DNA from: Escherichia coli
GTDB lineage: Bacteria; Pseudomonadota; Gammaproteobacteria; Enterobacterales; Enterobacteriaceae
Length of the DNA stretch: 64,000 bases
Assembly: GCF_003991155.1 (NCBI RefSeq)
Contig: NZ_CP031293.1
Reading direction: 5' to 3' (one strand)
Made by a program: the position numbers. Positions 15,001-30,000 of the stretch are shown piece by piece. Numbering within the stretch: the stretch's first letter is position 1; each line of letters begins with the position of its first letter.

Positions 15001-18000
15001 AAAATTGTATTGGCCATATGTTTATCTGTAAAATCATAAAGTTCTAAATCGACATTCCGTAAGTCCAGAGAGGATAGATCAACTATACCTCCACTCCCAC
15101 AACTAAAGATTACGTTCAACCTCCTGATTTCATTGTAAATGTCTTTCAATGGGCAATTAACATTGATATTGCCTGTGGATATTTCCTGGTTTTTTAACGG
15201 TTCATTAATTGTAAGTTCACAGGTATTGTCTGATCGTTGAATAATTCGGGCGTTATAACCAAAAAAATCCAGACGAAGAGACGAATCATTATAAAGAATT
15301 ACATTTTGTAAGTACGCTAATTCTTTTTGAAAATCACCAGTGATAATGCATTTCCCACCTGGTTGTAACGCGTTAAGTAAAGTGACCATTTCAATAGAGG
15401 TCTGTTTTAGTTTTTCTATACCTGGTGCTAGTGCTTCGAGGTTATTAACTATGGGGCTTTCAGGAAGGTCATTCATTTTTCGACGGGCTAAATCACTACT
15501 AATATTATTACCAATTGATGAAACAGGGGACATTATTTTATCCTTTATAAATAATCAATAAAAATCATTATTAAAATGATCGGGTGAAAAAAAGAGAATT
15601 TGCCAACAATCTGAAGGAATGGAGGTTTTATTAAAGTACGTAGGGGGGGTTAAGATGGCTTCTTTTCGGGTGAATTTTGCACAATACTTAGAAATCGTCT
15701 CCTTAATACATTCCAGCTCTTTTTTATTGACGGCTGAGCAAATACATTGTTCACCAAAAGGTGCAAAAGTGCCTACATCTAATGTTTGTATGATATAATC
15801 GTCATGTTCTCCTGTAGAAATATCTATGATGAATGGACTCATATTTTCCGGTTGGATTCGGATCATGACAGAAGGAATATCGCCTTGATAGAAATTCAAT
15901 GCAGTAATTGCAGATAATACTCTCCGCAGTTCATTACTTATACTGTATATTTTATTAACGTCATTGGTGGAGACAATTTCTGCAAACTTTCTTTTTACCG
16001 TCCAATAATCAATATTTCTGTTGTGATTGTTAACCACTGCGTGCATTGGCGGGATTGAAGGGTGAAAAATATGTGCAATTGGGAAGCCTTTCATTGATGC
16101 CTGCCTTGTCATCATGACAAACAATAATAGATGCTTATTTTCCTCGCACGGCACTTTCGCACTATCAAAAAACGCTCATTTACCCGGCATTACAGTAAAC
16201 GAAGCAACATTCTGTGGCCTACGCCGATCAAAAGCTCTGTGAAAATTCCCCTTGTTGTCTTTGGCTGACCTTATCGCGGCGACCAGCAATTATTCGTTTT
16301 GTGATCCTCAACACAAAATGCTATTCGTCGCCTATGAGGGGAGAGGAATTTATGGAAAACGATTGCATTCACAAAATGACGTCCTGTCAGAAGAGAAAAA
16401 GTTGACGTTAATCAATTGTTCGAGATGATCAATACCTGTATTCGAAATTTTAAAATATTGATAAAATAAATGTTTGTTCTCCAACAAATAGCGTGAAAAA
16501 ATGTGACGTGCCGCATTATTTATCGCTGAAAATGGTTTATTTATAATAAAATTTGAGAACTTGCTCATTAAATTTAACTCAAATTTTGCCTGGTAATTAT
16601 CCGGTAATTGCTTGAAATATGGCCTCAACCCCTTTTTTGTATTAACCACATAACGAATGATGTTATCGCCATAAAATATGGTTATCCCCGTCATTTTTTT
16701 TGACAAAAATCAGGGTTTATGCTGATTTTTATACTTTAACTTATTGATATATAAAGATATTTAATTGGAATAACGATACCCTGGAAAGTATTGAAAGTTA
16801 ATTTGTGAGTGGTCGCACATATCCTGTTCATTTCATTTTGATACACTTCATGCCGTCAATGAGGTAATTAACGTAGGTCGTTATGAGCACTATTCTTCTT
16901 CCGAAAACGCAGCACCTGGTAGTCTTTCAGGAAGTCATTAGAAGTGGCTCTATCGGCTCGGCTGCAAAAGAATTAGGGTTAACTCAACCGGCCGTCAGTA
17001 AAATCATTAACGATATTGAAGATTATTTTGGCGTGGAATTAGTGGTGCGGAAAAATACCGGTGTAACATTAACACCTGCCGGTCAATTGTTACTCTCCCG
17101 TTCCGAATCCATTACCCGTGAAATGAAAAATATGGTTAATGAGATAAGCGGTATGTCTTCTGAGGCGGTGGTGGAAGTCTCATTTGGTTTTCCTTCATTG
17201 ATTGGTTTTACTTTTATGTCAGGGATGATCAACAAGTTCAAAGAGGTGTTCCCGAAAGCGCAGGTTTCTATGTATGAAGCGCAACTGTCTTCGTTCTTAC
17301 CGGCAATCCGCGACGGTCGACTTGATTTTGCGATTGGTACGTTAAGCGCAGAAATGAAGCTTCAGGATTTACATGTTGAGCCGCTGTTCGAGTCCGAGTT
17401 TGTGCTGGTAGCCAGTAAGTCCCGAACATGCACCGGCACCACCACGCTGGAGTCGTTGAAGAACGAACAGTGGGTGTTGCCACAAACCAATATGGGATAC
17501 TACAGCGAGCTGCTCACCACGTTACAAAGAAATGGCATCAGTATTGAAAACATCGTTAAAACCGACTCAGTCGTGACAATTTATAATCTTGTTCTCAATG
17601 CTGATTTCTTAACTGTAATTCCATGTGATATGACATCACCTTTTGGTTCTAATCAATTTATTACTATTCCGGTTGAAGAAACATTACCTGTGGCACAATA
17701 TGCCGCGGTATGGTCGAAAAATTATCGTATTAAAAAAGCAGCATCGGTTTTGGTGGAATTAGCCAAAGAGTATTCATCTTATAATGGGTGTAGACGAAGG
17801 CAATTAATTGAAGTTGGTTAGTTATTTGTTTTTATTTAAACATAAATAATCCACCTGTCTGTTTTGCAGGTGTCGGTTACGGTTACCTACATATTTAATT
17901 CAGGCTAAGAGGTTTTATAATGCATATTACATACGATCTCCCGGTTGCTATTGATGACATCATTGAAGCAAAACAACGACTGGCTGGGCGAATTTATAAA

Positions 18001-27000: not shown

Positions 27001-30000
27001 TGCCTGCCGAGAAGATTAACGAAAATCTCGTTCAGCGCGGCATCATGATTTTCGCCATTTTGCTGGCCTGGAGCGCCATCGTACTGAACGCACCGGTGTT
27101 GAGCTTCACCTCTATCTGTAGCCCGATTTTCGGCATGGTAGGGTGCCTGATCCCGGCGTGGCTGGTTTACAAAGTACCGGCATTGCACAAATACAAAGGG
27201 ATGTCTCTGTACCTGATTATCGTCACTGGTTTGTTGCTTTGTGTTTCTCCGTTCCTGGCATTTTCTTGATTTACCTGAAATTTTAAGGTTTTTAATATGT
27301 TTGATTCGACTTTAAATCCGTTATGGCAGCGTTACATCCTCGCCGTTCAGGAGGAAGTAAAACCGGCGCTGGGATGTACTGAACCGATTTCACTGGCGCT
27401 GGCGGCGGCGGTTGCTGCGGCAGAACTGGAAGGTCCGGTTGAACGTGTAGAAGCCTGGGTTTCGCCAAATCTGATGAAGAACGGCCTGGGCGTCACCGTT
27501 CCCGGCACGGGAATGGTGGGGCTGCCGATTGCGGCGGCGCTGGGAGCGTTAGGTGGAAATGCTAACGCCGGGCTGGAAGTGCTGAAAGATGCAACTGCGC
27601 AGGCAATTGCCGATGCCAAAGCACTGCTGGCGGCGGGGAAAGTCTCAGTTAAGATCCAGGAACCTTGCGATGAAATCCTCTTCTCACGCGCCAAAGTCTG
27701 GAACGGTGAGAAGTGGGCGTGTGTCACTATCGTCGGCGGGCATACCAACATTGTGCATATTGAGACGCACAATGGTGTGGTGTTTACCCAGCAGGCGTGT
27801 GTGGCAGAGGGCGAGCAAGAGTCTCCGCTGACGGTGCTTTCCAGGACGACGCTGGCTGAGATCCTGAAGTTCGTCAATGAAGTCCCGTTTGCGGCGATCC
27901 GCTTTATTCTCGATTCCGCGAAGTTAAATTGCGCGTTATCGCAGGAAGGCTTGAGCGGTAACTGGGGGCTGCATATTGGCGCGACGCTGGAAAAACAGTG
28001 CGCGCGCGGCTTGCTGGCGAAAGATCTCTCTTCATCCATTGTGATTCGTACCAGCGCGGCATCCGATGCGCGTATGGGCGGCGCTACGCTTCCGGCAATG
28101 AGTAACTCCGGCTCGGGTAACCAGGGGATCACTGCAACAATGCCTGTGGTGGTGGTAGCAGAACACTTCGGGGCCGATGATGAACGGCTGGCGCGTGCGC
28201 TGATGCTTTCGCATTTGAGCGCGATTTACATCCATAACCAGTTACCGCGTTTGTCTGCGCTTTGTGCCGCAACGACCGCAGCAATGGGGGCCGCCGCCGG
28301 GATGGCATGGCTGGTGGATGGGCGTTATGAAACCATCTCGATGGCGATCAGCAGTATGATCGGCGATGTCAGCGGCATGATTTGCGATGGTGCGTCGAAC
28401 AGCTGCGCGATGAAGGTTTCGACCAGTGCTTCGGCTGCGTGGAAAGCGGTGTTAATGGCGCTGGATGATACCGCAGTGACCGGCAATGAAGGGATCGTGG
28501 CGCATGATGTTGAGCAGTCGATTGCCAACCTGTGTGCGTTAGCAAGCCATTCGATGCAGCAAACGGATCGGCAGATTATCGAGATTATGGCGAGCAAGGC
28601 CAGATAAACGCCAGGTTTTGGGTATCGTGCCGGATGCGATGCTGGCGCATCTTATCCGGCCTACGAATTGCACAATTTGTTGATGTTGTTGGGTTTTGTA
28701 GGCCGGATAAGGCGTTTACGCCGCATCCGGCAACTTGTCTTTACGCGGTAGCTTCATCTTCGGCTAAACGCGTTTCAGCATCCGCGACGATGGCTTCCAG
28801 CTCGCTCAACATCTCTTCATAGCCAAAATTATTGGCGGTGCGAGCTGGTTCTTTCGCCACCACGGGCTTCACTGGCTGACGCTTTTTGGCCGATTTTTTA
28901 CTCATCATCATCTCCCTGTAAAAACAACTAGACAGGCAAATCTATCAGCAAAGCGCGCAGTGGGGAATCGGCAACCAGCGTAATGTTAGCCTCGTCACGA
29001 ATAAACGCCCCATCACCGCAGGTTAGCGCCGCTTTCTCTTCATGATGCGTAAGCGCATGAAATTTCCCGTGAATCGATTGCAAATACGCGCGTGGCCCAT
29101 GCAACTGGAAATTCGCACTTTCGCCTTTGTCGAGCATGATATGGTGCAGCCACACTTGCTGGCGCAATTGCAGGCTTCCCATCCCACCTTCTGGCGAGGC
29201 GATTAATTGCTGCTTGCTCATATTAAGCGCCAGTTTTTGAATCAGCGGATTCTCTCGTTGTGGGCAGGCATCCAGCCAAAGTTGCATTCGCGTTAACGAT
29301 TTGTCTTTGCTGAGATTGTGTTCGCTATAGCTGACACCCGGCTGGGTAGAGAGCAGCAACACCTCACCAGCGCTGGCCTGAACATGATTGCCTTCGCTGT
29401 CGCGATACTCAGCTTCTCCATCCAGAATCACATTTAAAATATCGACTTTGGGATAGGTTCGTGGCTGAAAGGCGGCACCTGGGGCCAGCACTTCCTGGTT
29501 AAGCACGCGCAGGGAGGCATAGCCTAACAATTTCGGGTCGAAGTAGTGTCCAAAGGAAAAAGTATACCGGGCCTGCAACCATCCGTAGTCTGCTTGTCCA
29601 CACTGCCTGGCAGTTCGGGTAGTAATCATAATTCTTGACCTCTCTTTACTTCCTTTTATGGTAAGGGGCTGGACGCTACATTGTTAGCCAGATATTCTGC
29701 CCGGTATGTTCAAATTTCCTGAATGAGAACGAAATGGCCAAAGAAAGGGCATTAACGCTGGAAGCACTACGGGTTATGGATGCGATCGATCGCCGGGGCA
29801 GTTTTGCGGCGGCGGCGGATGAGCTGGGACGCGTGCCTTCCGCACTTAGCTACACCATGCAAAAACTGGAAGAAGAGCTGGATGTGGTGCTGTTTGACCG
29901 CTCGGGCCATCGCACCAAATTCACCAATGTCGGGAGGATGTTGCTGGAGCGAGGGCGCGTTTTGCTGGAAGCCGCAGATAAACTGACTACCGATGCGGAA

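Follow-up and report, generated by a model that had tools for sequence, protein, structure and literature searches.

The systems closest to the locus considered here are the tdcABCDEFG and cyuPA operons of Escherichia coli, whose adjacency, separate promoters and, in the case of cyuPA, catabolic role have already been published (Zhou & Imlay 2022, PMC9040844). According to that work, cyuPA has a discrete promoter that depends on CyuR and Crp, cysteine induces cyuPA and leaves tdc unaffected, and the cyuPA pathway serves fermentation rather than detoxification. Here we analyse the same genes in a 64,000-nucleotide stretch of E. coli DNA from contig NZ_CP031293.1 (the window, meaning the whole of this stretch), where they fill positions 16883-28607 (the block). 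The block almost certainly represents two adjacent, independently transcribed operons belonging to the core genome of E. coli, which would ferment threonine, serine and cysteine, and whose two paralogous permease genes, tdcC and cyuP, are no substrate for recombination. The gene content and its integrity, the near-identity to strain K-12, the terminator and the repetitive extragenic palindromic (REP) sequences, the divergence of the two permease genes at the DNA level and the absence of recombinants are observations made on the DNA itself. The biochemistry and the regulation come from the literature, and would extend to this DNA through the near-identity of its products to the characterised K-12 proteins. 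Both the content and the arrangement of the block are already known.

Positions 16000-30000 of the window were compared by megablast with 5,426 complete E. coli genomes. Several chromosomes, for instance NZ_CP029747.1, are 100% identical to the window across these full 14 kb, and the gene coordinates were transferred from the annotation of this identical RefSeq record, in which no gene of the block is marked as a pseudogene. The interval 16883-28607 corresponds exactly to the sequence from the start of tdcA to the stop of cyuA, with tdcABCDEFG followed by cyuPA, that is, nine genes in the RefSeq annotation, all of them on the + strand. The first one, tdcA (16883-17821), encodes a LysR-type activator of 312 amino acids (Pfam HTH_1 and LysR_substrate). 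It is followed by tdcB (17920-18909), for the catabolic threonine/serine dehydratase dependent on pyridoxal 5'-phosphate (PLP; 329 amino acids, Pfam PALP, E 1e-80), and by tdcC (18931-20262), for a threonine/serine:H+ symporter of the HAAAP/STP family (443 amino acids, NF010152 and TIGR00814). Next come tdcD (20288-21496), for a propionate/acetate kinase (402 amino acids, Pfam Acetate_kinase, E 2e-175), and tdcE (21530-23824), for a glycyl-radical 2-ketobutyrate/pyruvate formate-lyase (764 amino acids, Pfam PFL-like and Gly_radical). The tdc genes end with tdcF (23838-24227), for an enamine/imine deaminase of the RidA family (129 amino acids, Pfam Ribonuc_L-PSP), and tdcG (24299-25663), for an Fe-S L-serine dehydratase (454 amino acids, Pfam SDH_beta and SDH_alpha). 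The remaining two genes are cyuP, also named yhaO (25938-27269), for an HAAAP/STP-family importer of cysteine (443 amino acids, TIGR00814), and cyuA, also named yhaM (27297-28607), for an Fe-S L-cysteine desulfidase (436 amino acids, Pfam SDH_alpha, E 2e-58).

An earlier note on this DNA had counted eleven co-oriented genes in the block; the co-orientation holds, but the number is nine. Eleven + strand open reading frames (ORFs) of at least 80 amino acids do appear in a mechanical list for the interval, but two of these are spurious, one lying inside tdcE (22053-22343) and one inside cyuA (27589-27831); in the same list, the ORF for tdcD begins at 20276, 12 nt before the annotated start. The superseded K-12 annotation had eleven ORFs as well, with tdcG (b4471) and cyuA (b4470) each split in two, and b4471 and b4470 now occupy the places of the missing b3111/b3112 and b3108/b3109. 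The miscount could come from either source.

Each gene was compared base by base with its counterpart in K-12 MG1655. All nine begin with ATG, are free of internal stops and have the length of the K-12 gene, so the description of the block as fully intact stands, and the gene identities and the reading of an intact catabolic block are borne out by the annotation, by the Pfam and NCBIfam matches and by the K-12 comparison. Over its 11,725 bp, the block differs from K-12 by 221 single-nucleotide polymorphisms (SNPs) and zero insertions or deletions (98.1% identity). The tdc genes (b3118-b3113 and b4471 in K-12) keep the same order, orientation, lengths, intergenic spacings and terminator position, and their differences are allelic SNPs only, which are denser in tdcE (96.7% nucleotide identity) and tdcG (97.1%); the other genes of the block show 98.1-99.2% identity each. 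Similarly, cyuPA (b3110 and b4470 in K-12) presents no structural difference, with the same 27-bp gap between both genes, the same 274-bp upstream region, where 3 SNPs are found, and the same 133-bp downstream gap carrying a REP pair. At the protein level, TdcA, TdcB, TdcF and CyuP are identical to those of K-12, TdcE has one substitution, TdcC and TdcD have two each, CyuA has three, and TdcG has six. The SNPs are unevenly distributed: between 21383 and 24882, 12-28 SNPs per 500 bp are counted in tdcE and in tdcG towards its 5' end, and none is present at 18383-19382 or 25883-26382. This unevenness suggests a history of mosaic recombination among E. coli lineages.

The protein families agree with these assignments. 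The expected Pfam family is matched by eight of the nine products, all but CyuP, and all seven tdc products score above the Pfam or NCBIfam cutoff. TdcC reaches 984.8 bits with the NCBIfam equivalog NF010152 (cutoff 645), 572.8 bits with TIGR00814 (cutoff 525.8) and 34.2 bits with PF03222 (cutoff 22), and TdcG reaches 1051 bits with the equivalog NF011614 (cutoff 873). TdcE retains the RVSGY glycyl-radical motif at residue 736, together with the Cys-Cys pair at 423. TdcG and CyuA both match Pfam SDH_alpha, though no significant pairwise similarity between them is found by BLASTP, and their relation is therefore visible at the profile level only.

With regard to transcription, the gaps between the tdc genes measure 13-98 bp and that between cyuP and cyuA 27 bp, against 274 bp between tdcG and cyuP. 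At the beginning of this long gap, 23 nt past the tdcG stop, lies the intrinsic terminator of the tdc operon (25687-25713, + strand), which consists of GGGTGCAC-AAAT-GTGCACC followed by a run of eight T (T8), with the hairpin at 25687-25706. Its stem has 8 bp, and it is the top-ranked terminator-like site in 16000-30000. The hairpin is retained in the minimum-free-energy fold of its 57-nt context (-15.1 kcal/mol, z -2.05), and no terminator-like site is present in any other intergenic gap within both operons. Terminator-like matches overall occur in 16000-30000 at chance frequency (19, against 16.2 +/- 4.2 expected). The sequence between the terminator and cyuP (25714-25937, + strand) would be the regulatory region of cyuPA, whose separate promoter is taken from PMC9040844.

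It has to be considered that the nine genes might form one single transcription unit, in which read-through of the tdcG terminator would place cyuPA also under the control of TdcA, CRP and anaerobiosis. All nine genes are indeed co-oriented, the stem of the terminator is just 8 bp long, with a context that folds only modestly better than its shuffles, and Crp dependence has been reported for both operons (PMC9040844). However, a hairpin followed by T8 is a canonical intrinsic terminator, the gap that follows it is far from the spacing found inside the operons, and the promoters are reported to be discrete, with cysteine inducing cyuPA and having no effect on tdc (PMC9040844), which makes a single unit very unlikely. 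Two independently transcribed operons remain the preferred reading.

The ends of both operons carry additional elements. The statement that a strong terminator is found only after tdcG is correct for canonical intrinsic terminators, but it overlooks the inverted REP pair, or bacterial interspersed mosaic element (BIME), located 3' of cyuA at 28628-28732, between the convergent cyuA and yhaL. This element is formed by REP sequences of the GCCGGATG/CCGGATAAGGCG type and folds at -65.8 kcal/mol (z -6.4), with no canonical intrinsic terminator there; it also explains the approximately 26 matching places per genome in the megablast comparison of 16000-30000. REP pairs are known for stabilising the mRNA upstream and for attenuating transcription. 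At the other end, the tdc promoter region contains the CRP-like site TGTGAGTGGTCGCACA (16804-16819), 64 bp upstream of the start codon (ATG) of tdcA, with one mismatch to TGTGA-N6-TCACA, and only 7 sites at such a match level occur in the 64-kb window. We presume that this sequence feature is the CRP site that operates at the tdc promoter. Further upstream of the block and on the - strand is tdcR (16350-16568), annotated under this name in the RefSeq record, a small, divergently oriented gene for an activator of the tdc operon, and downstream of cyuA lie yhaL, yhaK and yhaJ, the last one at 29734-30630.

From what is known of the K-12 proteins, the action of this block can be outlined as follows. 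TdcC would bring in threonine and serine, which the PLP enzyme TdcB and the Fe-S enzyme TdcG would deaminate to 2-ketobutyrate and pyruvate, with TdcF removing the enamine/imine intermediate. The keto acid would then be split by the glycyl-radical enzyme TdcE into acyl-CoA and formate, and TdcD would finally give propionate or acetate plus ATP. Transcription of these genes would be activated by TdcA, together with the divergent TdcR and with CRP, and would stop at the terminator 23 nt past tdcG. CyuP would bring in cysteine, to be converted by the oxygen-sensitive Fe-S desulfidase CyuA into pyruvate, ammonium and H2S, with cyuPA expressed from its own promoter, presumably dependent on CyuR and Crp, and its 3' end bounded by the REP pair.

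No feature of the sequence contradicts this picture of two complete and separately controlled operons, and some caveats apply. CyuP matches TIGR00814 with 504.3 bits (E 2.5e-151), slightly below the cutoff of 525.8, and has no Pfam match (PF03222, Trp_Tyr_perm) at E <= 0.001; its place in the family is given by the full-length match to TIGR00814 and by BLASTP to TdcC (E 5e-30). The six substitutions of TdcG all fall within residues 97-166, and their effect is a caveat to the predicted intact function of this enzyme. Upstream of cyuP there is no convincing CRP site, the only TGTGA half-sites, at 25713, 25748 and 25803, being weak. The CyuR motif as published is not matched there either, the best candidate having 8/23 mismatches. 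The missing CyuR motif is in line with a remark of the source paper, where it was also not predicted upstream of cyuPA (PMC9040844). Lastly, what is said below about damaged copies comes from two genomes, R9 and NCTC 13148, opened out of the approximately 70 that fall below 80% coverage of the block.

The two permeases deserve separate attention, since the earlier note had regarded them as paralogues 6 kb apart and as a potential recombination substrate. TdcC and CyuP are both 443 amino acids long, are 25% identical across 436 residues (BLASTP E 5e-30), and each match the 397-position TIGR00814 model end to end; their homology thus spans almost the full length, and the assignment as HAAAP-type paralogues is right. 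Of the two, only TdcC passes both thresholds (TIGR00814 and PF03222); within the HAAAP/STP family, as modelled by TIGR00814, CyuP would represent a diverged branch with another substrate, cysteine. TdcC and CyuP are genuine but remote, ancient paralogues of this family. As for the distance, it is more precisely 5,675 bp from the end of tdcC to the start of cyuP and 7,007 bp from start to start.

The recombination idea does not survive at the DNA level. A codon-aware alignment of tdcC and cyuP gives 42% nucleotide identity, and a free global alignment gives 50.2%, against 48.7 +/- 0.5% in 30 codon shuffles. Identical runs reach 11 nt at most, and 10-13 nt in the shuffles; there is no megablast match between both genes, and the best blastn match (E 0.06) covers 28 nt, with 79% identity. 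Homologous recombination needs 25-90 bp of near-identity, the minimal efficient processing segment, and its rate drops exponentially with divergence (PMC9650840). The pairwise alignment of the two genes, the check put forward together with the idea, therefore refutes it: having diverged to chance-level identity, tdcC and cyuP do not provide homologous recombination with a substrate. Apart from the inverted REP pair, the repeat search over 16000-30000 returned nothing but imperfect pairs as short as 16-34 nt, none of the direct repeats exceeding 34 nt (71% identity). Like the well-known substrates of non-allelic recombination, such as the rrn operons, insertion sequence (IS) copies and REP/BIME elements, tdcC and cyuP are co-oriented homologues on one chromosome arm; the former, however, share long near-identical DNA, and the latter share at most 11 nt. 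Paralogy at 25% protein identity does not by itself make DNA a recombination substrate.

Other genomes agree with this view. Because pieces of a match were joined only if they lay within 1.5 kb, any tdcC-cyuP deletion hybrid would give about 100% coverage of a 2-kb junction query made of 1 kb of tdcB and 1 kb of cyuA. With this query, tdcB and cyuA are found within 1.5 kb of each other in 0 of 5,418 genomes, a result that concerns the deletion junction, the reciprocal duplication junction not having been searched. No deletion hybrid of tdcC and cyuP is thus seen in these genomes. RecA-dependent unequal recombination between the two genes, deleting or duplicating tdcD-tdcG, would have in its favour their common orientation, their equal length of 1,332 bp and the homology of their products over some 436 amino acids. 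With nucleotide identity and longest run at the level of shuffled sequence, no megablast match and nothing near the length of homology required, with no deletion junction in any of the genomes queried, and with both disruptions examined being caused by IS elements, this possibility can be practically discounted, and the reading of two remote paralogues that do not recombine is kept.

Concerning its distribution, at least 80% of the block is found in one place in 5,357 of the 5,426 genomes, and a flank-to-flank junction query finds clean loss of the whole block in none of 5,425. Retention of the yha genes in >94% of E. coli has also been reported (Connolly et al., PMC4699771). Within E. coli genomes, the block is near-universal and syntenic, and its intact form is the default state of the species, not a notable trait. 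Among the genomes with lower coverage, R9 and EC12 share the same two-piece match, 1.26 kb longer. In R9 (9559-12143 of its extracted locus L005), an ISEc52 insertion splits cyuP, and tdcR has an internal stop; in NCTC 13148 (1404-2101 of its extracted locus L006), IS1B stands in place of tdcB. Both damaged copies opened are IS-mediated, and not the product of exchange between the paralogues.

A further idea is that tdc and cyu might constitute one selectable "amino-acid fermentation island", inherited and occasionally transferred together, in which cysteine catabolism would be tied to the tdc regulon through partial read-through at the tdcG terminator. The co-movement of both operons was already raised by Zhou & Imlay (PMC9040844). 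We consider such an island quite unlikely, and two separate core-genome operons remain the better description.

A cyuP-like permease gene is also carried by a few plasmids, namely pSW070912_contig_2, NZ_CP051739.1 and NZ_CP058189.1 from Enterobacter hormaechei. The copy of pSW070912_contig_2 (7941-9278 of its extracted locus L007) adjoins peptidase genes of the S6 family, similar to the serine protease autotransporters of Enterobacteriaceae (SPATE-like), and IS fragments, and is 83.6% identical to the chromosomal cyuP (25938-27269) at the nucleotide level and 94% at the amino acid level. This copy is a mosaic: nucleotides ~95-440 of cyuP match at ~98% identity and include unbroken identical stretches of 98 and 77 nt, and outside this segment about 7-33% of the positions are mismatched per 60-nt block. 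Judging from this pattern, the plasmid copy seems to have undergone gene conversion in the past, with a chromosomal cyuP of E. coli as partner.

Elsewhere in the window, a four-gene chaperone-usher fimbrial operon of the CS1 type (class 5) is located between exuR and exuT (37756-42853, + strand), encoding a chaperone, a major subunit, an usher and a tip adhesin of the CfaE/CblD family. This operon is present in 1,916 of the 5,426 genomes, with at least 95% identity in only 172; most of the other copies are ~87% identical and remain unmatched over most of the tip-adhesin gene. Between rnpB and a gene of the yhaC family (~14217-14299), the window is 113 bp shorter than the otherwise identical NZ_CP029747.1. 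K-12 has several copies of a repeat 3' of rnpB at 113-bp spacing, and the difference is therefore copy-number variation of these repeats; Tandem Repeats Finder reports no array downstream of rnpB in the window. In the yqjF-yqjG intergenic region, a match to the small RNA family Rfam ES036 (CssrF) at 33005-33045 (- strand) scores 38.4 bits, against a gathering threshold of 37.6. Finally, the phosphotransferase system (PTS) cluster for N-acetylgalactosamine/galactosamine (~410-5540) is annotated as complete, with agaV, agaW, agaE, agaF and nagA/agaA as full-length coding sequences; we presume that K-12 has a deletion in this cluster.

The role of cyuPA is the point where the literature allows for more than one view. 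The label of cysteine detoxification, used in the earlier note, is dated, as Zhou & Imlay argue for a pathway that imports and ferments cysteine (PMC9040844). Alternatively to cysteine fermentation, the main role of cyuPA might still be detoxification, or else the uptake and sensing of D-serine under YhaJ in enterohaemorrhagic (EHEC) and uropathogenic (UPEC) E. coli. CyuA does protect against excess cysteine (PMC9040844), but an importer is poorly suited to a detoxifying function. YhaO, which is CyuP, transports D-serine in a YhaJ-dependent manner in EHEC (Connolly et al., PMC4699771), and yhaJ lies just 1.1 kb downstream of the block. One of these as the main role, in place of fermentation, seems rather unlikely to us. 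Fermentation, detoxification and D-serine uptake are not mutually exclusive, nor can they be decided between from sequence alone, and fermentation is the role we favour for cyuPA. The strain carries the standard genes for the anaerobic fermentation of threonine, serine and cysteine, of little new significance in themselves, and these genes have a bearing on colonisation of the gut, production of H2S and the sensing of D-serine in pathogenic E. coli.

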